From the IMG/VR virus record IMGVR_UViG_2645728091_000008: DNA of 22,213 bases; one strand, 5' to 3'. The DNA comes from a virus (Duplodnaviria > Heunggongvirae > Uroviricota > Caudoviricetes). Both the position numbers and the translations under genes were made by a program. Of this stretch, positions 2,001 to 22,213 are shown piece after piece (position 1 is the stretch's first letter; each line of letters opens with the position of its first letter). The notes under the pieces are model-generated. The model was not told the DNA's origin. It worked only from the letters and a program-made list of their open reading frames with translations, and did no database searches.

Positions 2001-5000
2001 TCAGCTGATACTGATCCCTGCCGTGGATTTTTTCATGACCACAACCAGTAAATCACTGATGTACGTTGTCGGCGTCCAGTTGTTCGCACCGGCCGACGAC
2101 ACATTAAACGTCAGGGTGACATGACCCCGCCCTGCCGGCATATCTATCACCGATGAGAACACCCGGCTGACATCCGTTGCCGGTTCATGGAAAATCTCAA
2201 CCCCGTTCTTCAGCACCTGCAGCTTACAGGTGGAATACCAGTACGACTGCTGATTCGGGCTGTTGAAATTCTGGTGTTTCGTCCCGCGAAACAGCACCGG
2301 GGGAATGATAATCTGCCGGTCGAAGCCCTGGTCATCGTAAACTGTGACGGTTACCGTCCCGCTGGCATAACTGTTATTCCGGGGAAAGGCTTTCCCCACC
2401 GTCTTCACCAGGTCGCCTTCAATCTGGTTTGCAGACAGTTTCCCTCTGATGACACAGTTCTCGTTAATGGTGACATTATTGAGCGTGCCGGTATTCGCGG
2501 TAATTGCTCCGCTGATATCCGCGTTCCTGGCTGTCAGCTTCCCTTCCGGCGTCAGGGAAAACGTCGGGGGGTTGCCGGATGACGTGATACTCGCCGCAAA
2601 CAGACGCTTCAGGAACACGTCGTTCATGAACAGCTGATTCCCCTGCGCCACAAATAACGGAGTGCTGTTGCCGCTCTCCGGATTTATCATCGCGATACGG
2701 TCAGCCAGCAGCAGTATGTTGCTCAGTGGCTGGCCATCAGTATCCTCAATCCCTGCACCAATCCCGGCCACATAGGGAATGCCGTCTTTCGTTTTTTGAA
2801 CCTTCAGCATGTACAGCGCAGCCAGGTCATCATTTGTGTCCTTCTGCACGCGCTGTATCTGCTGAATGGTGGCGCTCTGGTCTTCCAGCGTTTTACTGAC
2901 CGTCTGTGTGATTTCATTGCGGGTTTCGGTGATGGTGGTCTTCATCTCCGCCATCTCATCCGCAAGCTGGCTGTTGTCTATCAGCTCCCATAGCCCCTGA
3001 GCCAGATGCAGTTTTCCTATTTTTTCCCGGAAAAATTCCAGATACCCTTCACCATCATTGCTGGGCTGCCCGCTGACTTCCACAAACGCAGATTTCCCCA
3101 CCAGGTTGACGCTGCGCACGTAAAACCAGAAATCCTTCCCGGGCTTAATGTGCGGGCCGGATACACTCCACTGACTGCCGGTCCCCAGATAACGGGCAGA
3201 GGTTTCCACCTGAGATGTGTCTGCGATTTTTGCCTCCGAAAACCAGAACTCAAACTGTACCGTCGGGTCATACACCGCAAGACGCGGGACCGCCGTTATC
3301 TGAAAATACCCCGGCGTCAGTTCAATGGTGGCGGGTTTTGCTGGCGCGTTAATCCGGAAGGTGGTGGTGGCCGGTTCGCCCTGCTGGCCATAACTGTTAA
3401 TTGCCCTGACTGTCAGGGTGTATTCCCCGAGCGGCAGACCACTGAAACGATGCTCTGTATCCGCAGTGATGGCGGTGGTCACCAGACGGCTGTCTTCTCC
3501 GCTTCCGTTGGTCAGGCGCAGACTGAAGCGCACACCCTTCACCACCCGCGGCGTGTCCCATTTCGCCTGTGCCAGATACTGACCGTCAGCCGCGCTCACC
3601 TCCACCGTCAGGTGCTGCACAGCCGGCGGGATGACGCTGTTCAGCGAACCGGACAGTGGCTCAAAGCTGGCCCCGTTATCCACAATGGCTTCTTTTTCCG
3701 GTACGTGCTGCACCGCCGTGATGGCAAAGGTGCCGTCCGTGTTTTCCCGGATGGAGACACAGCGGAACAGGCGACGACGCAGTGACGGCAGGGAGAGTCC
3801 CCATACACCGTATGTCTCCACACCATCAGGCAGGGTGCTGACCTGTATCCGGTCCGGCGCGGGGTGTGCAGTGATGGCCACGCTCACCGGCTTACCGCTG
3901 CCGTTAATCAGGTTCACCGTGGCGGCACCTGTCTCCGGCAGGGTCACCTCACGGTCCAGTGTCAGGGTGCGGCTGGCGGCATCGATGGACAGGATACGTC
4001 CGCCGGTCATGGTCCCGGCATAGTCGTTATCACAGATTTCAATAATGTCACCGGGTGTGTGACGCAGCCCCTGTGACCCGAGCGTGAAATCCACCGTCTG
4101 CGTTTCCAGCAGTCCGGTCTTTATCACCCACAGCCCGGCACGGTGGGCCTGACCGCGACTGGTGCAACCGAACGCATCCATCTTCAGCAGGTTGCGCCCG
4201 TAGCGCAGTATGGCTTCCGGGTCTTCCACCAGTTCCGTGGAGGTCTGCCAGCCGTTCTGCGGGTCGGTGTAATTCACCTCCACCGCCGTGTGGCGGTCCT
4301 TCAGGGCGCTGAAGCTGTAGCGAAACCCCACGCCGTTATCATCCACCACCACATCGCAGTTGGTGTACGGCCACACCACATCCGACGGGCGGTCCTGAAC
4401 GAACGTCAGCGTCTGGCCGTTCCATACCGGCATACAGCGCATCGCCGAGCAGAAATCACTGAGAACGTCCCACGCCTTACGCTGTTGTGACAGGTACGCA
4501 TTAAAGGTCATCCGCGGCTCTGTGCCCCCGAAACCATCCGGGACCGTCTGGTCGCAGTACTGCCCGATGGCATACAGCGCCCACTTGTCAACATCCGCCG
4601 CCACCAGACGTTTTCCCATGCCGTAGCGCGGGTGAGTCAGCATGTCCCACAGGCACCAGGCCGGGTTGTTGCTGTATGCCGGTTTCAGGCTGCCGTCCCA
4701 GATGCCGCTGTACGTGCGTTTTTCCGGGTCATAGTTTGACGGTACCTGGATGATGCGACCGCGGATATGGTAGTTCACCGTCATCTGCTGACCGCCAAAC
4801 TGCTCCGCATCCACCTGCAGCCCCACAATCGCCGTGTTCGGGTAGCACTGTTTCACATCGATGATTTCGGTGTATGACGACCAGAGCGTCTTATTCTGCA
4901 GCTGGTCCGAGGTGCTGTCCGCTGTCTCCCGGACCATCCGGATGTTAAAGGGCCGCTCAGGCAGATTCTCCAGAATCACCGACGCCAGGTACTGTGAGGT

Positions 5001-5477
5001 GGTCTTGCCGTTAATGGTGACATCCTTTTCCGTCACCCAGTTACCGTTACGCTGCAACTGAATCAGCAGTCGGACAGAAGAGGGATTACGGTCGCCCTTT
5101 GAGGTGGTCTCCAACAGTGACTGCACCCCGAAGGTGACCCGCAGGCGGTCAATGTTCGCGGATGTAATGGTGCGCGTTACCGGCTTTGCCTTCGTCACTT
5201 CCACGCCCAGTCCGGTTTCAGCTCCGGAGGACTCAAAGCCTTCCGGTGGTGTCTGCTCCTGCTCCCCGGCGCGCCAGACCGCGGTCACACCGTGTATCAC
5301 AGGATTGCCGTCCGTGTCCGTCAGCGGGGTTTTGTTCACCAGGATACTCTGCAGCCCCTTCACCGGGCCTTCTATCGGTCCCTCACCAATCGCATCAATC
5401 ACACTCATCATCTGCGTGGATTTGAGATTATCCTTCGCCTCTCGAGGCGTGTGCGCCCTGCCGCCACCTTTGCCCAT
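2001..5477 (-). CDS. J: tail tip / host specificity protein J (central tail fibre), 1158 aa
   Basis: ATG at 5477 with SD GAGAGGA upstream. N-terminus [37 protein letters not shown] is near-identical to recalled lambda J, and length is similar to lambda J (1132 aa). Confidence 0.95.
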
Positions 5478-5610: not shown

Positions 5611-6138
5611 ATGAAATGTAAAATCATTGCTGCCATTGCCATGCTGACAGCAGCATCATGCGGATACGCAGCAGAACAGGAAGTCCCAATGAACCTTGTC
5701 AGTGCTGACGGAAAAGAAGTCAGCATTGGAAAAATAACCATTCAGGAGACCCCCTACGGTCTGCTGTTCACACCAGCCCTTCACTCTCTGTCTGAAGGCA
5801 TTCATGGTTTTCATGTGCACGAAAAAGGAAATTGCGCCCCGGCACTGAAAGACGGAAAACCGGTCGCAGCATTATCGGCTGGCGGTCACTTTGACCCGAA
5901 AAACACCGGCAAACATCTTGGCCCCTGGTCTCCGGATGGACACCTGGGCGACCTCCCTGCGCTGTTCGTGACGCATGACGGAAAAGCGAACTACCCGGTC
6001 CTGGCCCCGAGACTGAACTCATTAAAAGAGATTAAAGGGCGTTCTCTCATGCTTCATGCTGGCGGTGATAACCATCATGACCATCCGGAGCCCCTGGGCG
6101 GTGGTGGTGCGAGAATGGCCTGCGGCATCATTCAATAA
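5611..6138 (+). CDS. sodC: periplasmic Cu,Zn superoxide dismutase (175 aa), prophage moron
   Basis: ATG 5611 with SD GAGGG 4 nt upstream, TAA at 6136..6138. N-terminal signal peptide [17 protein letters not shown]. Cu/Zn-SOD signatures [33 protein letters not shown] and [14 protein letters not shown]. It is the C-terminal part of track ORF 5104..6138; the upstream extension is antisense to J and rejected. Confidence 0.95.
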
Positions 6139-6328: not shown

Positions 6329-7009
6329 TTATGCCTGCCGCCCGATAACCACGACCTTTCCGCCCCCGCCTTCATCACGGGTACTGATGTCCTGGGATAT
6401 ACGGCGGGAGCCAACCAGCATTTCACCGTAAGGCACCGGCATCGGGTTCCCCTGGGCAATCATGTTATCCAGCGAGGAAAAGTACGTGTTCTGTCTGCCG
6501 TTATCCGTGCTTTTGTACTCCGGTACTTTAGCCTTCGGGGCCAGCATCTGAGCCACACCACCCAGAATCATGCTGGCCCCCAGTGAAAACAGCATCGTGG
6601 TGGCAGAAAAACCACCGGCTGCCAGGGCTGAACCCCATAACGCCATTGATGCCCCGGCAGTGAAGAAAGAGCCCACGATGGCTGCCGCCCCCAGCACAAT
6701 CTGCAGTCCACCCTTTCCGGCCCCGGCCAGTCGCGGCACAATGTGGATGACCGTTCCCTCACCCAGCTGTTCGTGAAGACGGGCGTACACCGCCTCCGGT
6801 GCCGTGTCCTCACCGCGAATACGTATCTGGTACCAGCCTTCGTTCATCTGACGGCGGAATCCCGGCATCTGCATCGACAGGGCACGGATAGCTTCCGCTG
6901 CCGTGTTCACATACAGGCTGAGGCGGCGGCCAAATCGTTGTAAATCCCCGTGAAGGCAGATACGTGCCAGTGGCGGTGACGCCAGGCTGAATGCGTTCGT
7001 CGTTGCCAT
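6329..7009 (-). CDS. I: tail assembly protein I (226 aa)
   Basis: ATG at 7009. MATTNAFSLASPPLARICLHGDLQRFGRR and the Gly/Ala-rich middle match recalled lambda I. Overlaps the 3' end of K by about 100 nt, as K and I do in lambda. Confidence 0.9.
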   Translation of the reverse strand: MATTNAFSLASPPLARICLHGDLQRFGRRLSLYVNTAAEAIRALSMQMPGFRRQMNEGWYQIRIRGEDTAPEAVYARLHEQLGEGTVIHIVPRLAGAGKGGLQIVLGAAAIVGSFFTAGASMALWGSALAAGGFSATTMLFSLGASMILGGVAQMLAPKAKVPEYKSTDNGRQNTYFSSLDNMIAQGNPMPVPYGEMLVGSRRISQDISTRDEGGGGKVVVIGRQA

Positions 7010-7651
7010 TTTTCGGAATACCTCTCCCGTTTACTCAGTTGTTCAGGCAGATGGTGAAGCAGCTCACCGTTGCCGCAGTATATGGCGGCATGATTGGCCA
7101 CCGATGCGCCAAAGCAGCACAGCAGGATATCGCCAGGCTGTGCGGAAGGCAGGGAAATCCTGTAAAAACCAGTCGCCTCCATATTGTCCAGGTACAGGTT
7201 CTGACCGTTGCGCCACCAGTCATCCTCACGCTCAAAATCCGGCATATCAATTCCCGCCAGATGGTAGGCATCCCGGAACAGCGTGTAACAGTCCGTCACC
7301 CCGTGCTCAAAGCGCCGTCCTGTCAGATGTGGCACACAGCGGAATTTATGAATTTCCCCCCCGGCAGACCAGCCACCAGGACAGTGCACTTTTTATCTGC
7401 AGCCGCCGGTCGGCCTCGCTCAGCCAGGGCAGACCACCGGGATGACTGTGGACCAGTGCCACAATCTCCCCCTGCATCTCTGCCCGCAGCCAGTCTTCCG
7501 GTGCAATACGAAAATACGCCTCCGGCTCTGCAGAGATATTCACACAAGGGATATACCGCTCCCCCTCCGGCGTTCTCACCACGAAGCCGCACGACTCCGC
7601 AGGCACACACCGCCGGGCATGCGCCAGAATCGCTGATTCTGTCTGTGTCAT
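6907..7651 (-). pseudogene. K: tail tip assembly protein K (MPN/JAMM N-domain plus NlpC/P60 C-domain), reading frame broken at a G7 tract
   Basis: N-terminal ORF 7346..7651 (ATG 7651; HSHPGGLPWLSEADR JAMM motif) ends at TAA 7346..7348. C-terminal ORF 6907..7389 (DCYTLFRDAY, HAAIYCG) is in the adjacent frame. The frames can only be joined within 7349..7392, which contains the C7 run at 7356..7362. Removing one C gives a continuous ...WWLVCRGEIHKFRCVPHLTGRRFEHG... Confidence 0.75.
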
Positions 7652-8355: not shown

Positions 8356-8684
8356 CAGTTCACCACCTGCTTAAACTCCGCGCTGAATTCAACCCGCAGC
8401 ATGCGAACCCGTGATGACCAGGCGGCACAGGTCACCTTTATCTGCCGCCAGGCATAAGGCGGTGTCCACAGAAACGCCTTCCAGCCACCGTGCTCTGCCA
8501 GGAATGCCTCCAGATGTCGGGCCTCCTCCCGGGTCACGGAAAGCGTCACACGGTATGTTTTCAGGTCAGCATTCAGCCCCGCCGCCATACGCTGCGAATA
8601 CCCGTCACCAAAACGCACTTCACGCACCGATGGCTGCGAGTTCACCTCCATATCCGGCTTCACTTTCCAGCGAAATGTTTTCAT
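8355..8684 (-). CDS. M: minor tail protein M (109 aa)
   Basis: ATG 8684 overlapping the H stop; ATGA overlap with L. Size and position as in lambda. Confidence 0.9.
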   Translation of the reverse strand: MKTFRWKVKPDMEVNSQPSVREVRFGDGYSQRMAAGLNADLKTYRVTLSVTREEARHLEAFLAEHGGWKAFLWTPPYAWRQIKVTCAAWSSRVRMLRVEFSAEFKQVVN

Positions 8685-11260
8685 CGCCTGCCTCCGGAAA
8701 AGACGCCGCCATCACGCATCTGCGCCTGAATCTCATCCTGCGCCCCCTTGCGGGCCATGTCATACACCGCCTTCATCAGCTGCGGCCCCGCCTGTCCGTT
8801 GGTGCCGTCGTTCTGAATCACCACGTGATTGTTCTGATTAAAACTAATGCCTTCCGCCCGCCGCATCTGCGCCGGACTTCCGGCACCGCCCACATAACCA
8901 CCTTCCGCATACCCGCGCATCAGACGATACAGGTTGCCGACGCCAATCCGGCTGGTTGCCTCCTTCGTGAAGACAAACTCCCCGCGGTGGACAATACCGG
9001 CAGGTTCGTATTTGCCACCGGTTCCCGTAAATCCTCCGGTCGCGAAATGGAAGTTCGCCGCCGCAGCCTGAATGGCCGTCCCCGTGGAGGCAGACGCCCC
9101 ACCACCGAAAGCACCACCCATGGCGCTGCCAATACTCCCGACAATCCCCACCATGGCCTGCTTCAGAAAAATCTCTGTCAGCATGGAGAGCACAGAACGG
9201 GTGAAACCACGCCAGCTCTGTTCGCTGCCGGTCAGCATCGCTGCCATATTCTGTGCAATACCGTCAAAGGTCTGCGTGGCCACGCTTTTAACCTGCGAAA
9301 AACTGTCCGTCGCACTTTCTGCCCACTCGCCCCAGCCGGGCTTCAGACCGGCCATCCAGCTTCCACGAAGCTGCTCCTCCGCAGACCAGGTGTTCTTCAG
9401 TGCAGATGTGGCCTTCGCCAGCGCATCCGGATTATCACCGTACACGTCACGAAGGCGCTGCTCTTCCGACTCCCGCTGCACCTGACGGTCGGTGAGGCCC
9501 CGCGCCTGGGCACTGATTGCCGCCTGCTTCGCGCCCTGCTGCTGCTCAAACCGCGCAGCCTGCTGTGCCAGCTCATTCAGCCGTTTCTGGTGTTCAACTT
9601 TGTCTCCCAGCTCAGCCAGCTGGCGTTTGTACTCCAGCGTCTCTTTCTCATGGGTCAGCAGGGATTTTTCCTGCTCAGATAACTGCCGTTTCGTGGCTGC
9701 CTCTTTCAGGACCGCATACTGATTTTCCGCTTTCCATAAATCGCGACGCTGCTGGCTGATTTTCCCATTCGCACCGCTGTGTTTTTCCAGCGTCCGGAGC
9801 TCGGTTTCAAGCGCCAGCAGGGCAGCATGCGCCTGGTCTTCCTGACGCTCACCGGCTGACACTTTGACTCCTGACGACTTCGGCTTTTTCAGCGTCGATT
9901 CATAATCCTTTTTCGCCGCCGCCATCAGCGTGTTGTAATCCGCCTGCAGGATTTTCCCGTCTTTCAGGGCCTTATTCAGTTCTTCCTGACGGGCGGTATA
10001 TTTCTCCAGCGGCGTCAGCAGACGCTCATACGCCTTCTGCGCCTCTCCGGTATACTTCAGCTGTGATGCGTCCCGTTCGGCCCGGTCCCTGGCGGCCAGT
10101 TCACCGGCTTTTTCCATATCCGACTGCAGCGTGGCCGCTGCCAGCCCCAGACGGGCATTTTCCCGGTCATTCCATGCGCCCTGAAGGTTGGCCCGGAAAG
10201 AGGAGGTTTTACCGCGGCGCTGGCTCCGACTCTGGTACCACTGCCATTTTTTATCCGCCTCATCAAATGCCTTCTGCGCACTGGCGAGCATATCCGCTGA
10301 GGATTCCGGACGACCGATATCCAGAATGGCATCCCACATCGATTTGAATGCCTTCCCTGTTTTATCCGCCCAGGTCTCCAGTGTTCCCATGTTTTCTTTC
10401 AGGCGACGGGTCTGCTCATCAAAGCCTTTCGTGGCGATATCGTTCGCCGCCTGCAATGCCCCGGCCTCGTCTCCGGAACGCTGCAGCTGTGCAACATACG
10501 CAATCTGCTCTGCCGTCACGTTACGGAACTGGCGCGCCATCGCCATCAGTCCCGACGTCGGGTCAGTGGTCAGCTTCCCGAAGGCTTCAGCGACTTTATC
10601 CACCTCCACACCGGATGCAGACGCAAAACGCGCGACACTCTGGTTGATGGCATCAAACTGTTCACCACCACGCACACCGGCATTCACCAGGGCTGCCAGT
10701 GACTCTCTCGCCTGGTTAAACGTCAGCCCTGCTGCCTGCCCGGCTCTTGAGAGAGTCAGCATACGATCGGCAGTCAGTCCGGACTGATTACCGGAAAGAA
10801 CCAGGGTTTTATTAAACGCTGAAAGCGTGGAATCCCCCTGGTACCAGGCGTACGCCAGCGCACCTGTCGCCACCGCCAGCGAGGTGACCCCGACCATCGG
10901 CAGGGTGATCGCACCGGCAAGCCCCCTGAGCATGGGGATCATCCCGCCGAAGGAGTCCTTCACCTGACCGCCCTGTTGCAGCAGGATCAGCCAGGGATTC
11001 TGACCACCGGCAAGCTGCGTGGCGATATCCGTAAACTGTGCGGGCAGGGTGCGCATGGCCGCTTTATACTGTCCGACGGAAATCCCGGCTTTTTGCGCAG
11101 CCAGCGCCTGACGGCTCAGGCCCTGTTCAACAGCAGTGGCGGTTTTTCTGGCGTCAGTATCCAGTCCTGAAAAATGACGCCTTACCCGGCTCATCTGCTC
11201 ATCGAAACGGACCGCATCCAGACTCAGGTCAATAATAAGATCACCAACCGGCTGGGACAT
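8681..11260 (-). CDS. H: tail tape measure protein H (859 aa)
   Basis: ATG 11260. MSQPVGDLIIDLSLDAVRFDEQMSRVRRHF and long stretches (for example QLAGGQNPWLILLQQGGQVKDSFGGMIPM) match recalled lambda H (853 aa). Confidence 0.95.
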   Translation of the reverse strand: MSQPVGDLIIDLSLDAVRFDEQMSRVRRHFSGLDTDARKTATAVEQGLSRQALAAQKAGISVGQYKAAMRTLPAQFTDIATQLAGGQNPWLILLQQGGQVKDSFGGMIPMLRGLAGAITLPMVGVTSLAVATGALAYAWYQGDSTLSAFNKTLVLSGNQSGLTADRMLTLSRAGQAAGLTFNQARESLAALVNAGVRGGEQFDAINQSVARFASASGVEVDKVAEAFGKLTTDPTSGLMAMARQFRNVTAEQIAYVAQLQRSGDEAGALQAANDIATKGFDEQTRRLKENMGTLETWADKTGKAFKSMWDAILDIGRPESSADMLASAQKAFDEADKKWQWYQSRSQRRGKTSSFRANLQGAWNDRENARLGLAAATLQSDMEKAGELAARDRAERDASQLKYTGEAQKAYERLLTPLEKYTARQEELNKALKDGKILQADYNTLMAAAKKDYESTLKKPKSSGVKVSAGERQEDQAHAALLALETELRTLEKHSGANGKISQQRRDLWKAENQYAVLKEAATKRQLSEQEKSLLTHEKETLEYKRQLAELGDKVEHQKRLNELAQQAARFEQQQGAKQAAISAQARGLTDRQVQRESEEQRLRDVYGDNPDALAKATSALKNTWSAEEQLRGSWMAGLKPGWGEWAESATDSFSQVKSVATQTFDGIAQNMAAMLTGSEQSWRGFTRSVLSMLTEIFLKQAMVGIVGSIGSAMGGAFGGGASASTGTAIQAAAANFHFATGGFTGTGGKYEPAGIVHRGEFVFTKEATSRIGVGNLYRLMRGYAEGGYVGGAGSPAQMRRAEGISFNQNNHVVIQNDGTNGQAGPQLMKAVYDMARKGAQDEIQAQMRDGGVFSGGRR

Positions 11261-14639: not shown

Positions 14640-15668
14640 TTATTTCACCTGTACCACCACAAACTCATCCGGGTCCGGCAACACCATCAGCGGCGCGGAC
14701 TGCGTCATGGTAAATTCACGGGCGGGATCCCCTACCGTCAGCCAGTGTTTCGGATAACGGGAAGAGGCCACCACACCTTCGGACAACGCCTGCGCATCCT
14801 GAATGGCACCATAGCAACGAATGCCCTCTGCTGCCGTATTCCCCAGGACCAGCGAACCCTCAGGCAGATAACGTTTTTCGGTACCGTCCTCTGCCACATA
14901 AGACGTTTTTGCCACCACAATGGCCAGATCGCCGTAATACCCTTTGAAGGACACCACCGCGCCCAGGTCTTTCACCGCTGTTTCGAGTTGCGAATTAGAG
15001 CCGCGACGGGTATCCAGTTTTTCGCGGAACAATTTAAAGCCATTCAGCAGACGCCAGACGGTACCGTCCATAATGGCAATATTCACAAGACCGCTGGCCT
15101 GGTCGCAGTAGAGGTCAAGATCATGTGTAGGATCGAACGTGTCACGATCCTGTTTTGACCACTCCTTACCACTACCCTGAGTGATGTTATTCTTCGTCGA
15201 CCTGCCAAAATCGACCTCAATTTTCTCGAACTGGTCTCCTTCCATCGTGTATTTGCCATACAGCACGGCATTCACCGCCTGCATTTCTTCCACCTGGACA
15301 ATGGCGTGCTCTTCCTGTTTGAGGTTATCAGTGATGATACGCAGACGACGGTAGGCCGGGTCGTTCAGCTGAGCCGGATCTTCACCGGGAAGACGCTCAA
15401 CCGCCTGCTGGTAATTAAATTCGTGTTTCGGCTTGACGTAGCCCGGACGTAACACGCGGGTTTCACCACCACGATGACGCAGCACTTTTCCTTCAACAAC
15501 CGGGGAAACATAGGCCGCCACCGGCGTTTTTCCGGTAATTTTGTCCAGCATCACCTCTTCGGTATGGAAATTCACCGTACGGCGGAAAAACAGCTCCAGA
15601 AACAGCGCACGAAATTTCACTTTTTGTTCGGTATAACCGAGTAACTGGCGGGTCGTAAACAATCCCAT
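14640..15668 (-). CDS. E: major capsid protein E (342 aa)
   Basis: ATG 15668 with SD AAGGAA. Long matches to recalled lambda E (GYVKPKHE, QVEEMQAVNAVLYGKYTM, KEKLDTRRGSNS, RYPKHWLTVGDPAREFTMTQSAPLM). Confidence 0.95.
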   Translation of the reverse strand: MGLFTTRQLLGYTEQKVKFRALFLELFFRRTVNFHTEEVMLDKITGKTPVAAYVSPVVEGKVLRHRGGETRVLRPGYVKPKHEFNYQQAVERLPGEDPAQLNDPAYRRLRIITDNLKQEEHAIVQVEEMQAVNAVLYGKYTMEGDQFEKIEVDFGRSTKNNITQGSGKEWSKQDRDTFDPTHDLDLYCDQASGLVNIAIMDGTVWRLLNGFKLFREKLDTRRGSNSQLETAVKDLGAVVSFKGYYGDLAIVVAKTSYVAEDGTEKRYLPEGSLVLGNTAAEGIRCYGAIQDAQALSEGVVASSRYPKHWLTVGDPAREFTMTQSAPLMVLPDPDEFVVVQVK

Positions 15669-16109: not shown

Positions 16110-17615
16110 TCATGGCATGGCCATGAGCATTTTCACGTCCGCATCACCGTCTGCTGACGTCTGTGGCACGCCACCCTGTACCGCTGCCGGTGAATGGTTC
16201 GCCATGATGCGTTCAAACATGGCGGTTGTGGATGCAGAGACCGGTTCTGCCTTACCTGATCCCGCAGCCAGCACAGCCCGGGCGCTCTCCACAGTCATTC
16301 CCGGGCAGGCAGCCAGCTGTTCAGCCTGCGCCTCAGCCCCTTTTGCCTCATCCAGTGCCATGATCTGATCACGGAGTGAGGGTCCGGCATCCGCCTGCGG
16401 TGAAGCAGCCAGGATCGGGCGGGCTTTTTCCACCGTCATCTCCGGCATCGCCGCCAGCGTTGCCGCCAGTTGTTCACGACCTTTCGCTTCTTCACACGCC
16501 ATAATGCGATCGGCTTCACTCTGCGCGGATGCCACCGGCTGCTGTGGTGCCGCCGCGGCCAGAATCGCCCGGGCCTGTTCAACGCTCATGCCCTGTTGTC
16601 CTGCCAGCATCGTGGCAAGCTGTTCACGTCCTTTCGCTTCCTGGCATGTCAGGATCCCCATCACTCGCTGGTTCTCCTGCGCGGCGGCTTCCGTTGCAGT
16701 TAATTGCGGCATAGTGCCTCCTCTGACATTACTGTTCAGCGCCGTGGCCATCACACTGATGGCATCCGACGCATTGATTAATTCATCCGCCAGCCCGGCC
16801 TCAATGCCGGACTGACCTTCAAAAACGGCGGCCTCTGTTCCCGTGACAGCATCAACAGACAGACCGGTATACATCGCTACTTTTTCAGCAAACATCCGGC
16901 GCGCCGCATCAATGCGCTGTTGCATGTCCTGGCGAACCTCTGCCGGCAACGCTTCAAACTGATTGCCATCCACCTTGTGCGCCCCTGAGTAAATCAGCGT
17001 GATATCAACACCGGCCTGCGCCAGATGACCGGCATAGCTGACATGGCTCATCATCACGCCAATGGAGCCGATACGGGATGTCTGGGTAACCAGCCGTCGG
17101 GAGCAGGCCGACGCCAGCAGCATGGCTGCAGAGCAGGCCGTGTCATTGCACAGTGCCCAGACCGGCTTCTGCTGACGGAGGCGGTAAATCATGTCAGCGC
17201 AGTCAAACGCGCCGGCGGCCTGCCCGCCCGGACTGTCAATGTCCAGCAGTACGCCCCGCACCTGGCTATCCGCCATTGCCTGCTGAAGACAGGCGACAAT
17301 GCCGTCATAGCCTGTCATTCCGGAAAATGGCCGCATACCCCCCAGCCGGTGCACCAGCGTGCCGGTCACCGGCAGTACAGCAATACCGTTCACCACCCGG
17401 TAAACACGGGCCGGTCGTTTACCTCCGGCCATGTACTCGTCCGTTTCAGCCAGCATTCCGGGAGCATCAAACTGTACCTGCTGTTGTGGTACCGAAAGAC
17501 TTGATGCCCCCATCTCGCGCCCGAGCGCGCAAAAGAAAACCCGCGCATAGGCGGGCTCCAGAAGCAGCGGTTCATTGAATGCTGCGGCAATAATGTGTGA
17601 AAGATTACGTCTCAC
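16110..17615 (-). CDS. C: head maturation protease C (S49/SppA-like) with in-frame C-terminal Nu3-type scaffold region (501 aa)
   Basis: Start is GTG at 17615, overlapping the B stop. AFNEPLLLEPAYARVFFCAL, GVLLDIDSPGG and KPVWALCNDTACSAA match recalled lambda C. About 62 aa longer than lambda C (439 aa). Confidence 0.9.
   Translation of the reverse strand: MRRNLSHIIAAAFNEPLLLEPAYARVFFCALGREMGASSLSVPQQQVQFDAPGMLAETDEYMAGGKRPARVYRVVNGIAVLPVTGTLVHRLGGMRPFSGMTGYDGIVACLQQAMADSQVRGVLLDIDSPGGQAAGAFDCADMIYRLRQQKPVWALCNDTACSAAMLLASACSRRLVTQTSRIGSIGVMMSHVSYAGHLAQAGVDITLIYSGAHKVDGNQFEALPAEVRQDMQQRIDAARRMFAEKVAMYTGLSVDAVTGTEAAVFEGQSGIEAGLADELINASDAISVMATALNSNVRGGTMPQLTATEAAAQENQRVMGILTCQEAKGREQLATMLAGQQGMSVEQARAILAAAAPQQPVASAQSEADRIMACEEAKGREQLAATLAAMPEMTVEKARPILAASPQADAGPSLRDQIMALDEAKGAEAQAEQLAACPGMTVESARAVLAAGSGKAEPVSASTTAMFERIMANHSPAAVQGGVPQTSADGDADVKMLMAMP
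16203..16664 (-). repeat. three degenerate tandem copies of a 47-53 codon module inside the 3' part of C
   Basis: Module starts I-[LM]-[TA]-x-x-EAKG at codons whose Met triplets are 16659..16661, 16500..16502 and 16359..16361, with a partial fourth at 16203..16205. Periods are 159, 141 and 156 nt. DNA-level repeat GTTCACG(A/T)CCTTTCGCTTC at approx 16473..16493 and 16622..16642. Confidence 0.65.
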
Positions 17616-19197
17616 GTGGTGTTGTCTCCTCTTCCGGCCTGCGACTCTCCGCTATCTGCTGCTCATACGCCTGCGCTATCCACACCGGACGTGAGAGTCC
17701 GGCTTTTTGTCGCTCAGCAGATTCCCTGACCTGCTGGCGGAAAATGTCCTGATAATCCTCGCCCATCAGCGCCAGCTCTTTCTCATACGTGCTCAGTCCG
17801 GCCTCAATGCGCATCACTGATTCCTGGACTTCCTTGAGCCCGTCAATGGCCATTCTTCCGGCTCCAATCCACTCAGCCCGTGACCAGGCTGATCGCGCCT
17901 GATAAAAATCAAAACGCGCCCGTGGCGGACGAATAATCCCCCGAAGAAGTGCCTCTTCCAGCCAGCAGGAAAACATCTGCGTGGCCAGCCGGGACGCAAT
18001 AAATTTTCGTCGTCCCATAAAATAGCGCCACGACTCATTGGCGGAGGCGCGGGCACTTGAATAACTGACCTTCGAGTAATCCCGGGACAACTGTTCGTAG
18101 GAAACGCCAAGACCGGCGGCGATATACCGCAGCAGCGCCTGTTCAAGCGCCGAAAATCCATTGTCTGAATCCTGCGCAGTCTGCAGTTTCAGATCATCAC
18201 CGGGGAAAAGGTGCGGAATTTTGACACCGCCCAGCGTCACGCTATTCGTGTCATACCAGGTGGAGAACTTATCCAGAATATTAATAAGCGGATTATCCTT
18301 CTGCCCCTGCGGCGCACCGGCGATATATTCAAAGGCCTTTTCGGTATCAAGTTCACTTTCAATCGTCGCTGCATACATGGCTTTCACAATGGCCGACTGA
18401 AGCTGTGTTGCCTGCAGGGAATCCAGCATCTTCAGCCGTTCCATGACGCTGTAAAACTGATTAGCCCCACGGGTCTGCCCGTCCTCCACCGGCTCGAAAA
18501 TATGCAGCATGGCCGGACGCCCGGTGGGTAGTTCACGCGGGATCCGTTCCCATCGTCCACTCCCGGAGAACGGAAAATCATCCTCACAGATATGGTACGC
18601 AACGGCACGGCCATATCGATCGACCTCCACCCCGGCCCGCAGAAAACGGTTCCCCATACCGTGTCCTGGCGTGTCCACCCGTTTCGGACTCACGGCTTTA
18701 AAACGCGTACGAAACAGTTGCGTGCTCTCCGTATCCCAGACCGGCTGCACAAAGATTTCGCCGTTAAACGCATGAACGCCCACACCTTCACGGATAAATT
18801 CCGTAAACGTGCGTTTCCCTTCCACGTCGATCTCGCCAGACATCCCTTCGGCGTATTCCGACCAGGCCGCCTCCACCTCATCGACAAAACTTTTTGCTGC
18901 AGTCTCCCGCATCCCCAGCCAGCGCCAGTTCGGACGGTAGCTGATCAGAAACATATGCCCGACAATATGATCCTTATGCAGTGCCACCGCATTGGCCGCT
19001 ATCCCGTTATTGCGCACCAGATCATCTGCCCGGGCATTGCCCAGACGCAACGCGGGCAACAGGGCCGCATCGGCACTCTGCGCCGGTGGCAACCACTCCG
19101 CCATTTGCCCGCCAAATCCTGCACCGCCCCCGTTGTAGCTGAGGCTCTCCCGAAGCGGAACACCGTTCACATCAATCAGGACAGGCGTTCGTTTCAT
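17605..19197 (-). CDS. B: portal protein B (530 aa)
   Basis: ATG 19197. GNARADDLVRNNG, EPVEDGQTRGAN, LQSAIVKAMYAATIESELDT, LRYIAAGLGVSYEQLSR and GRMAIDGLKEVQE match recalled lambda B. Confidence 0.95.
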   Translation of the reverse strand: MKRTPVLIDVNGVPLRESLSYNGGGAGFGGQMAEWLPPAQSADAALLPALRLGNARADDLVRNNGIAANAVALHKDHIVGHMFLISYRPNWRWLGMRETAAKSFVDEVEAAWSEYAEGMSGEIDVEGKRTFTEFIREGVGVHAFNGEIFVQPVWDTESTQLFRTRFKAVSPKRVDTPGHGMGNRFLRAGVEVDRYGRAVAYHICEDDFPFSGSGRWERIPRELPTGRPAMLHIFEPVEDGQTRGANQFYSVMERLKMLDSLQATQLQSAIVKAMYAATIESELDTEKAFEYIAGAPQGQKDNPLINILDKFSTWYDTNSVTLGGVKIPHLFPGDDLKLQTAQDSDNGFSALEQALLRYIAAGLGVSYEQLSRDYSKVSYSSARASANESWRYFMGRRKFIASRLATQMFSCWLEEALLRGIIRPPRARFDFYQARSAWSRAEWIGAGRMAIDGLKEVQESVMRIEAGLSTYEKELALMGEDYQDIFRQQVRESAERQKAGLSRPVWIAQAYEQQIAESRRPEEETTPRET

Positions 19198-19400
19198 AAC
19201 CTCACTCCCAGCGGACGACGGCGGCGGCTTGTTGTCCCCAGCACTGACTCCGCATCATTGATCGCCCGGTTAAGATCATCCAGAGAGGCCGCCGTATATT
19301 CAATTCTTCGTCCATCTTTCTGGACAGACACCACCCGTTTACCGGTTAATAAATCAAGGCGCGCCTGACGCAGCGCCTGCAGTTCAGCGACTGTAACCAT
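19194..19400 (-). CDS. W: head-tail connector / DNA stabilisation protein W (68 aa)
   Basis: ATG 19400; ATGA overlap with B. LTGKRVVSVQKDGRRIEYTAASL resembles recalled lambda W. Confidence 0.85.
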   Translation of the reverse strand: MVTVAELQALRQARLDLLTGKRVVSVQKDGRRIEYTAASLDDLNRAINDAESVLGTTSRRRRPLGVRL

Positions 19401-21312
19401 TCACTCCTCCGGACAGCTTCGCTGCCAGTTCTTTCAGGGTTGGCCGGGTCGTCTCTTCTTCCCGGGATTTTGCCAGTACAGCCAGATCAAGCTGCCAGCG
19501 TTGCACGGACACACGTAATGCCGCGTAGGCATACACCAGGCAGTCCAGCGCTTCGTTACGCCGCTTTTTGTTATCCCACAGCAGACGCATCTTTCCTTTT
19601 TCCCACTTCTCCACCAGCTCTTCCGCCACCAGTTGCTGCGCCTCTGTCTGCGAAAAAATCTCCGGATCATCAGGAAAACGGATGGCATACGACGTGGCTT
19701 CATCCGCAGGCGAGGGATCGGCTTTCATACGGGCATAGAGAATTTCTTTTGCGGTGTCCGTTCCCACTTCACACAGATACACGCCCCGCTGATTGCGGGT
19801 TTTTGGCATGGTGATCACCGGCTTGCCATAGACAGATGCGCCTTTTACCGGCAGCACCCGGAAAACACCGTGTTTTTTTGATCTCTGATAAACAATTTCA
19901 CCATCGATCCCCCCGGTGTCCCAGCAGACACGGGAAATAGTCATTTCGGTGCCATCCGCATGGCGGTATTTTTTGTTGATCGCCGCATCCACACGTAACA
20001 GCGTCTCTTCCTCATCAGGACGCCCCATAATGATGATTTTATCCACCAGAAAGGCTTCCTCTCCCGGAGCCCATCCCCAGACATACATCTCAAAACGGTT
20101 TCGCTGCGAGTCAATGCCCGCCGTCAGATAAACCACCCGGGCAGGTACCGCCGCCGTGTAACGCACCACCTTATCCATCAGTACCTGGTGATCGAGTTTT
20201 TCGCCCACGGCTTCTTCCCAGGTCTCGCCCAGCGTGGTGTTCACAAAGGTTTTCAGGCCGTTGGGATCTTTCAGTGCATCCAGCCAGTCATAGACTATCT
20301 GTACCCAGGTGGTAAACGGACTGTACGCCGTCCAGATATGGAACGTGATGGAGCGCGGCGGCGGAATTTCATCACCCCGGGCGCTGAAAAACGTCAGACC
20401 GTCACGGGTCCACATGCCCGTGTTTTCACAGATCCACCGCCCGTTGCTCTGGTCCAGTTCAGACTGATGGATCACGCAGCCATGATGTTCACAGAGGTAG
20501 AAAACACTTTCGGGGCTGTCCTTCTCCCATTTAAGCCCAAAAGGCGTGGACTCATCGCCAAATTTCAGATACTGCGCCTCCCCACAGTGCGGGCAGGGCA
20601 CATAAAAACGCATAAAATGCGCCGACTCGTTAGCGGCTTTTTCGATCTGGCAGGTGCCTTTGATTTTAGGCGTCGAGCCGCGAATGGATTTTGGCCACAC
20701 CGACCCCTCAATACGCTTATCCCCCAGCAGGGTTGGCGAGCCCTCTTTTTCGACATCCGGCTCGAACGAGGAAAGTTCGTCATAGCAGACCACGTCCACG
20801 GATTTTTCACGGTAGTTTTTGGCGGCAGCGCCGCCCAGGCACCAGAAACCGACGCCCGATGAAAAGCGTTTCAGCGTGAGAGTATTGTCACGATGTTTAC
20901 GACCCAGCCATGGGGAAAGGTCTTTCAGGCATGGCACGTTCCGAATCGTCGCCTCCACGTGAGACTTCATAAAATCTTCAGCGGCAGAATCCGTGGGCTG
21001 AAAAAGCAGACTGTTTCGGGATTTATGCTCAATAAAATACCCGCCCACCCCCAGCAACATCTTTGTATAGCCAACACGGGCAGATTTAATCAGGTTAACC
21101 GTGCGAACCTGGTCGTTACCCATACAGTTCATAATGGCGATCTGGAATGGCAGCGTTTTCCATTCTCCCTCACCATATGAAGATTCTTTAGGCAGATAAT
21201 AATTTTGATCAGCCCATTCAACTGCCGTCATTGGTACAACCCTGACCAGAGGCTGCAGCGCAACCGAAACGGCAGCCATCATATTATTCAGTTGTTGCTC
21301 TGATATATTCAT
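19384..21312 (-). CDS. A: terminase large subunit A (642 aa)
   Basis: Track start 21369 is TTG. ATG 21312 gives MNISEQQ..., aligning with the lambda A start MNIS. TAVEWAD.NYYLPKES, KNYREKSVDV, DKRIEGSVWPKSIRGSTPK, FVNTTLGETWE and KKRRNEALDC match. Overlaps nu1 by 29 nt as in lambda. Confidence 0.95.
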   Translation of the reverse strand: MNISEQQLNNMMAAVSVALQPLVRVVPMTAVEWADQNYYLPKESSYGEGEWKTLPFQIAIMNCMGNDQVRTVNLIKSARVGYTKMLLGVGGYFIEHKSRNSLLFQPTDSAAEDFMKSHVEATIRNVPCLKDLSPWLGRKHRDNTLTLKRFSSGVGFWCLGGAAAKNYREKSVDVVCYDELSSFEPDVEKEGSPTLLGDKRIEGSVWPKSIRGSTPKIKGTCQIEKAANESAHFMRFYVPCPHCGEAQYLKFGDESTPFGLKWEKDSPESVFYLCEHHGCVIHQSELDQSNGRWICENTGMWTRDGLTFFSARGDEIPPPRSITFHIWTAYSPFTTWVQIVYDWLDALKDPNGLKTFVNTTLGETWEEAVGEKLDHQVLMDKVVRYTAAVPARVVYLTAGIDSQRNRFEMYVWGWAPGEEAFLVDKIIIMGRPDEEETLLRVDAAINKKYRHADGTEMTISRVCWDTGGIDGEIVYQRSKKHGVFRVLPVKGASVYGKPVITMPKTRNQRGVYLCEVGTDTAKEILYARMKADPSPADEATSYAIRFPDDPEIFSQTEAQQLVAEELVEKWEKGKMRLLWDNKKRRNEALDCLVYAYAALRVSVQRWQLDLAVLAKSREEETTRPTLKELAAKLSGGVNGYSR

Positions 21313-21793
21313 CGAGTAAATCCGGTAATTTATCCCCTGCCCGCGCACACTGATTTGCCCCCTTAGCAATAAGGGTTTTCAGATGGTCAAGATGGCGCGG
21401 TGTTAAATCAGGAAACTGTCGCTGCATGGATAAAGGGATGGAATCAAGCGTACTGGATAACGCCATTGCCAGCTTACTGAGGGCAAAAATACAGAACCCG
21501 GTGTCAATAAGTTTTCCTTTTGACACCTCATTTTTTAACTGCTGTGTAACAGCCTGTTCTGCTGTCAGTTCCCATCTGGCAATAAGCAATTTCTCCTCAT
21601 AGTCGTCTTCGCTATCGCCATCAGGCACATCGTTTTTACTTCTCCTCAGATACGATATGTAAAAATCGCGCCAGGCATCCAGATCCAGTTGCCCTCGCTT
21701 ATTCGATATCGGGGCACCCGGCAATTTCTGCAATCTGCGAAGCTGGTGATCGGTCAGACTTAAATGCCTGGCAACTTCAGTCTGCGTAGCCAC
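21284..21793 (-). CDS. nu1: terminase small subunit Nu1 (169 aa)
   Basis: Start codon is GTG (21793..21791) preceded by GAGGTGAGGA, immediately after an in-frame stop. C-terminal half (CIFALSKLA...IPLSMQRQFPDL..RH.D.LK..I...LLDEYI) matches recalled lambda Nu1; the N-terminal DNA-binding part is divergent. Confidence 0.85.
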   Translation of the reverse strand: MATQTEVARHLSLTDHQLRRLQKLPGAPISNKRGQLDLDAWRDFYISYLRRSKNDVPDGDSEDDYEEKLLIARWELTAEQAVTQQLKNEVSKGKLIDTGFCIFALSKLAMALSSTLDSIPLSMQRQFPDLTPRHLDHLKTLIAKGANQCARAGDKLPDLLDEYIRATTE

Positions 21794-21832
21794 TCCTCAC
21801 CTCGCAAAAACTCTCACCTCACAATCACAACA

Positions 21833-21946
21833 AAACCGGTCATGTCCGGTTTACATGTCTGTTTTTTGTTCATGTCCGGTTCACAGAAGACCTGTTTTTA
21901 TATTTTTCATATAGTTAACTTGAAGAGAAACCGGACATGGATCCCG
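21833..21946. promoter_or_regulatory. cosB-like terminase binding region: three CATGTCCGGTT elements (two direct, one inverted) flanking an AT-rich IHF-like segment
   Basis: CATGTCCGGTT at 21841..21851 and 21871..21881, and inverted AACCGGACATG at 21929..21939. AT-rich 21890..21925 between them. Location between cosN and nu1 equals the lambda R3-I1-R2-R1 layout, but the element sequence differs from lambda R sites. Confidence 0.6.
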
Positions 21947-21976
21947 GAAAATTTTCATAAATAGCGAAAACCCGCG

Positions 21977-21988
21977 AGGTCGCCGCCC
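21977..21988 (-). other. cosN 12-nt cohesive-end sequence GGGCGGCGACCT
   Basis: Plus strand AGGTCGCCGCCC is the reverse complement of the lambda cohesive end. The flanking about 45 bp toward nu1 is near-identical to the recalled lambda left end (CGCGGGTTTTCGCTATTTATGAAAATTTTCCGG). Confidence 0.85.
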
Positions 21989-22114
21989 CGTAACCTGTCG
22001 GATCGCCGGAAAGGACCCACGAAAATGATAATAATTATCATCTACATGAGGTTTATCACGACATGTGTGTACGCCATCAAACCACGAGAAATAATCAATT
22101 ATTACGCAGGTATC
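21989..22114 (-). other. phage genome right-end segment including the expected cosQ region
   Basis: Reverse complement is near-identical to the recalled last ~125 bp of the lambda right end (...GGTCCTTTCCGG.GATCCGACAGGTTACG next to cosN). Similarity stops abruptly at 22114. Confidence 0.6.
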
Positions 22115-22213
22115 TGAACCGCCCCGGGAATCCTGGAGACTAAACTCCCTGAGAAAGAGGTAAACAGGATGACTAAAAATACTCGTTTTTCCCCCGAAGT
22201 CCGTCAGAGGGCG
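22115..22213 (+). mobile_element. left end of an IS3-family insertion sequence (IS629/IS1203-like), truncated by the window
   Basis: Starts TGAACCGCCCCGGGAATCCTGGAGACTAAACTCCCTGAGAAAGAGG, which I recall as the IS629-type left inverted repeat, followed by the orfA start. Lambda-like sequence breaks exactly here. Confidence 0.75.
22169..22213 (+). CDS. IS3-family transposase OrfA, first 15 codons only
   Basis: ATG 22169 after AGAGG SD. MTKNTRFSPEVRQRA matches the recalled N-terminus of IS629/IS1203 OrfA. Confidence 0.75.
   Translation, partial: MTKNTRFSPEVRQRA

Follow-up and report, generated by a model that had tools for sequence, protein, structure and literature searches.

An IS629-group insertion sequence end beside the cos site of a lambdoid Escherichia coli prophage

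The last 99 bases (positions 22115-22213) of the 22,213-nucleotide stretch of DNA analysed here, hereafter the window, are almost certainly the left terminus of a copy of the IS629/IS1203 group of the IS3 family, transposed into the spacer between cosQ and ylcI of a lambdoid prophage. The remainder, 1-22114, consists of the late (tail-to-terminase) arm of that E. coli prophage, encoded on the minus strand. Only 99 bases of the IS lie inside the window, the end of which falls within the element; the window most likely ends at 22213 through a contig break in a multi-copy repeat, and the IS would thus explain why the sequence stops where it does. The IS end marks the window as a prophage that resides in an Escherichia-type genome with many IS629-group elements, and the right arm of that prophage may be displaced or rearranged.

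The junction and the identity of the element

Positions 22115-22213 (plus strand) are 100% identical, over 99/99 bases, to elements annotated as 'IS3 family transposase' (E = 8e-44), and matches of at least 99% occur in 1,272 records. The same 99-base query finds matches in 3,622 of 5,426 E. coli genomes, the median being three places in a genome and the highest number 50. A chance similarity, or one unrelated to insertion sequences, such as phage sequence that happens to resemble an IS end, is refuted by this identity to thousands of annotated IS copies and by the fact that every close prophage relative is without IS sequence at the site.

The junction itself is fixed from both sides, because IS-free relatives end at 22114 and IS copies start with TGAACCGCCCCGGG. 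When the whole window was compared by BLAST with 5,426 complete E. coli genomes, at least 17 IS-free prophages of 97-99% identity gave a single alignment that ran from 1 to 22114 and then stopped. Base 22115 begins TGAACCGCCCCGGGAATCCTGGAGACTAAAC..., the terminal repeat TGAACCGCCCCGGG... starting at that base, and the copies of the IS found elsewhere likewise open with TGAACCGCCCCGGG where they join their flanks. The initial annotation had ended the lambda-like right end at 22114 and placed an IS inverted repeat, followed by the start of orfA, from 22115 onwards, and both placements were borne out.

The left terminal inverted repeat (IRL), TGAACCGCCCCGGGAATCCTGGAGACT, occupies 22115-22141 on the plus strand. 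Its extent was taken from a comparison of the two ends of a full-length copy, L005, in which IRL and the reverse complement of the right end agree at positions 1-14, 17-25 and 27 (24/27). The ends are of the IS3 type (5'-TG...CA-3'), with the start of IRL at 22115 and the right end, ...CCCGGGGCGGTTCA, seen in identical full-length copies. The orfA start codon is the ATG at 22169, and a Shine-Dalgarno-like AAGAGG can be read 8 nt upstream of it at 22155-22160 (plus strand). The first 15 codons of orfA, at 22169-22213 on the plus strand, encode MTKNTRFSPEVRQRA before the gene is cut by the end of the window, and these residues are the N-terminus of the 108-amino acid OrfA of full-length copies (L005). 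The transposase genes are directed rightward, away from cos and opposed to phage late transcription. No sigma-70-like promoter emerged when 21780-22213 and one full-length IS copy were scanned, and a terminator scan of the full IS returned one weak site on the antisense strand, no more than is expected from shuffled sequence; this result speaks neither for polarity on late transcription nor against it.

Two full-length copies (L005 and L006), each of 1310 bp, share all 99 of the visible IS bases with the window. The first of these sits within an IS4 copy and the second lies on a chromosome; both have direct duplications of 3 bp at their flanks, CAT and GAG. The OrfA of the full-length copies contains the Pfam domain HTH_Tnp_1 (1.8e-12), and the overlapping OrfB, of 296 amino acids, contains rve (1.2e-27) and HTH_21 and scores 309.5 bits against the NCBIfam model transpos_IS3, for which the cut-off is 160. 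Between orfA and orfB the same copies carry an ALIL frameshift-stimulating pseudoknot (Rfam RF01497, 116 bits). In the IS3 family OrfA (HTH) and OrfB (DDE/rve) are joined into one protein by a -1 programmed frameshift that the ALIL pseudoknot promotes, and transposition is of the copy-out/paste-in type, via a circular intermediate, with duplication of 3-4 bp of target.

The terminal repeat TGAACCGCCCCGGG..., the leader and the OrfA N-terminus in the window are common to the IS629/IS1203/IS3411 group, which we take to be the IS51 subgroup of the IS3 family in E. coli and Shigella. Copies labelled by PGAP served as the named references for a comparison of sub-types. The window sub-type was compared with four other full-length copies (L001, L002, L008 and L011), and with three of them it shares 95.0-95.9% identity across 1310 bp; with L006 the figure is 97.3%. 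The copy labelled IS1203 (L008) was compared over its full length, and the one labelled IS629 (L007) over 795 nt only, with 95.0% identity. Within the 99 visible bases, identity to the PGAP-labelled IS629/IS1203 copies is between 94/98 and 97/99; the window sub-type, which is not the one bearing either PGAP label, differs at 2-4 positions in 99, mostly synonymous or non-coding, and the match to an unlabelled sub-type is 99/99. The exact 99-base variant is the one common on ColV/ColBM-type plasmids and on some chromosomes. By the ISfinder convention, isoforms share approximately 95% or more nucleotide identity over the element, a level at which the 95.0-95.9% of the window sub-type is borderline. 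Sub-types of IS629, including the isoform IS1203, have been found to be 4-5% apart (PMC3271280); given that spread and the identities of 95.0-95.9% obtained here, the name first given to the element, IS3 family and IS629-like, is therefore accurate.

The host prophage, its cos site and the insertion point

According to the ORF map and annotated relatives, the late-gene arm is complete, the start of the window cutting a tail-fibre gene. On the minus strand there are Lom (1309-1932), J (2001-5477), I, K, L, M and H (8681-11260), then T/G, V, U and Z, head-tail joining and FI genes, the major capsid gene (14640-15668), a decoration protein, an S49 protease, the portal (17605-19197), a head-tail joining protein (19194-19400) and the large terminase (19384-21369). 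Between J and I, on the opposite strand, lies a sodC moron encoding a Cu/Zn superoxide dismutase (5611-6138). The Nu1-like small terminase ORF (21284-21793, minus strand), which is annotated as 'terminase small subunit' in homologous loci, is the first late gene across cos from the IS. The best-matching IS-free prophage, L003, is 99.0% identical to the window. In the closest relatives the type III secretion effector genes nleB2, nleC, nleH and nleF are found beyond the tail fibres (L003). The tail-fibre gene in which the window starts is repeated among prophages; this, together with the 99-nt length of the IS part, would fit a short-read contig bounded by repeats and assembled with k = 99.

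Tail gene K (C40 peptidase) has a run of seven C residues at 7356-7362 on the minus strand, where the 99%-identical L003 has six. The resulting +1 frameshift splits the gene into ORFs 7346-7651 and 6907-7389. Of approximately 3,770 complete E. coli genomes in which this segment is present, only two have the form with seven residues. Either the frameshift is real and inactivating, in which case K is a pseudogene and the prophage by implication defective, or the extra residue is an error of homopolymer sequencing; it is a hint of decay that is separate from the IS.

The cos site is of the lambda type, with a cosN 12-nt cohesive end and an upstream cosQ heptamer. The cohesive-end sequence matches that of lambda and reads GGGCGGCGACCT on the minus strand at 21977-21988; the reverse complement of 21944-21988 is the lambda left end at 45/45 bases (GGGCGGCGACCTCGCGGG...). 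The heptamer GGGTCCT at 22012-22018 (minus strand) is intact and identical to lambda 48473-48479, and we take it to be cosQ, a role assigned from the established lambda literature. From cosN to the IS there is a non-coding spacer resembling the lambda right end (21989-22114, minus strand), which is identical to the empty-site prophage L003 and aligns with the last 118 or so bases of lambda (48385-48502). Its length is exactly 126 bases, the distance from cosN that had been proposed at the outset. Compared with lambda, the cosB region of this prophage, to the left of cosN, is divergent. Three copies of the motif CATGTCCGGTT / AACCGGACATG occur there, within 21800-21950, and are presumably Nu1-binding R sites of a non-lambda packaging specificity.

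The target of the insertion was an AT-rich, non-coding spacer that runs from cosQ to a ylcI/ynfO-like gene, and the insertion point corresponds by homology to about position 48384/48385 of lambda. Without the IS, the sequence at the site is ...CAGGTATC/GTATTAATTG, the slash marking the insertion point; in L003 it is caggtatc/gtattaattg, ie ...CAGGTATC/GTATTAATTGATCTGC.... Beyond the empty site L003 continues with the ylcI/ynfO-like gene, a perC-like regulator, Rz, lysozyme and holin, the ylcI-like start codon being approximately 80 bp past the insertion point. The order of genes in the empty-site relatives agrees with the original proposal that the IS lies between cos and the lysis genes. Neither an ORF nor any of cosQ, cosN and cosB is interrupted. 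The further suggestion, that the IS may separate cosQ-proximal sequence from late functions, needs to be restricted, as cosQ remains beside cosN, with 96 bp between it and the IS, and the cosQ-cosN-cosB unit is not split. A separation of cosQ from cosN by the IS was rejected on the same grounds, from the position of the heptamer at 22012-22018.

The IS is expected to have transposed into a prophage already resident in an Escherichia genome. Of the initial description of a resident, possibly cryptic prophage, residence in a bacterial genome is upheld, and crypticity is not argued by the IS itself. Relatives of the element are flanked by target duplications of 3-4 bp (CAT, GAG, GTAT, AAC and GCT). 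Here the target-site bases are (T)ATC at 22111-22114, and the predicted duplication is ATC or TATC, its second copy lying at the right IS end beyond the window. A simple insertion would accordingly consist of a full 1310-bp element ending in ...CCCGGGGCGGTTCA, followed by the right flank (T)ATCGTATTAATTG or TATCGTATTAATTG. If the copy is complete the prophage would be 1.31 kb longer, in agreement with the earlier estimate of about 1.3 kb, and any effect on packaging would depend on the total length. The Q-antiterminated late transcript from pR' would cross the IS in the antisense direction before reaching Nu1/A. Polymerase modified by Q normally ignores terminators. The insertion is probably near-neutral, and the IS could serve as a substrate for IS-mediated rearrangement.

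Integrity of the copy and origin of the junction

A simple insertion of an intact element is favoured at slightly better than even chances. The other substantial reading accepts the IS end as genuine but has it belong to a truncated or interrupted remnant, or mark the breakpoint of an IS-mediated deletion or inversion, so that the lysis and regulatory arm does not lie beyond it; we hold this to be quite plausible, at somewhat under an even chance. Eight comparable cos-proximal or prophage copies bear on the choice. Four are intact and have a duplication (L001, L002, L005/L006 and L008), whereas the remaining four show truncation, internal deletion, a group II intron within the IS or the lack of a duplication. 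The damage found among the copies compared takes several forms: L009 is a remnant that can be aligned over its first 463 nt only, L010 has an internal deletion of about 237 bp, L004 and L007 are both split by a group II intron at IS nt 795, and L014 is truncated and adjoins an IS21. In L011 there is no flanking duplication, and cII and replication genes come next, indicating rearrangement. The frameshift in gene K also suggests that the prophage may already be decaying. On the other hand, the first 99 bases are the same as those of intact copies, with no sign of truncation inside the window, and the nearest analogue, L001, whose insertion is 1 bp away, has a complete 1310-bp element, a GTAT duplication and an undisturbed right arm.

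It is very improbable that the junction is an assembly artefact in which the end of a prophage contig was chimerically joined to a repeat. The IS part is exactly 99 nt long, which would equal the contig-end overlap left by a de Bruijn assembler with k = 99, and the exact junction was present in none of the collections searched. Against this, a contig ending a fixed k into a repeat is what a real repeat boundary normally produces. The join also falls exactly at the first base of the terminal repeat, as it does in true transposition and unlike a random chimera, and closed genomes carry real IS629-group insertions in the same spacer.

The junction was absent from the complete E. coli genomes, in which the best match was 1 bp off. 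A 31-mer spanning it occurred neither in IMG/VR viral contigs nor in GTDB representative genomes, a 23-mer was absent from JGI metagenome contigs, and none of the GenBank phage records covered 80% or more of the junction query. A single 20-mer match, in a Gammaproteobacteria MAG (L013, 829-848), was rejected, approximately one chance match being expected in 596 Gb. At that locus GCAGGTATC is followed by an IS3-like terminal repeat (TGAACCGCCCCGGATTTGCCGGAGACTC), with otherwise no similarity to the window or to IS629, and it was judged to be a chance 20-mer match adjoining a distant IS3-family end.

Other IS629-group insertions in the cosQ-ylcI spacer

In E. coli lambdoid prophages the spacer of about 200 bp from cosQ to ylcI has received independent IS629-group insertions at no fewer than five positions and in both orientations. 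In window coordinates, L007 and L009 carry the element at about 22066 in the orientation seen here, and L014 carries it at about 22083 in the opposite orientation. These are followed by L001 at 22113, in the window's orientation, and by the insertion at 22114 in the window itself. The remaining position, in L010, is 5 bp before the ylcI-like ATG, again in the window's orientation and with the duplication AAC.

The closest of these to the window is L001 (strain Z1323HEC0422, NZ_CP148339.1), in which the prophage type, the spacer and the orientation are the same. Its complete IS of 1310 bp is followed by ylcI-like, perC-like, Rz, lysozyme and holin genes. It differs in that the insertion is 1 bp to the left, after ...CAGGTAT, with the duplication GTAT, and in the sub-type of the IS, which matches that of the window at 94/98 over the shared end and is 95.9% identical over 1310 bp. 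Because its site is 1 bp off and its IS is of another sub-type, L001 must represent an independent event.

A query made of 150 nt of flank and the 99 nt of IS had both parts within about 625 bp of each other in 135 genomes, most of which hold one clonally inherited insertion downstream of ylcI in O26/O111/O103 lineages. The query in the opposite orientation gave nine genomes, and a further dozen or so related isolates from chickens matched it at 74% coverage. Clonality confounds these counts, which are no proof of a target preference. The insertions nevertheless show that the cos-ylcI region tolerates or attracts IS629-group elements. That the spacer is a true preferred target, for example bent or protein-bound DNA beside cos, beyond mere tolerance, is considered unlikely. 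The grounds for it are that different E. coli lineages have at least five independent insertions, in both orientations, inside some 130 bp, and that two of them are 1 bp apart and of different sub-types.

Insertion of this kind is a well-known and routine event. IS629 is the most abundant IS of EHEC O157. In O157:H7, 62% of IS629 copies are located in prophages or prophage-like elements (PMC3271280). The setting of the window resembles that of the O157:H7 Sp/SpLE prophages, in which IS629 is multi-copy and preferentially located in lambdoid prophages, and IS629 sites in O157:H7 are used to mark how strains have diversified (PMC3271280, citing Ooka et al. 2009). The host prophage differs from those Sp/SpLE elements and is most like the prophages of non-O157 strains that carry the effectors nleB2/nleC/nleH/nleF. 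In contrast to the catalogued IS629 sites of O157:H7, the junction in the window is absent from the junctions of complete genomes; it could serve as a strain-typing marker, in the way that IS629 sites do in O157:H7. The insertion in the window has little import beyond annotation, and the recurrence of IS629-group elements in the cos-ylcI spacer is a mild curiosity.

The comparison of copies also yielded an observation on the element itself. A group II intron encoding ltrA is present at IS nt 795 both in the copy on a ColV-type plasmid (L004, 3295 onward) and in a cos-proximal copy (L007, 4164 onward). IS nt 795 is a site-specific target for intron homing inside the IS629-type element.
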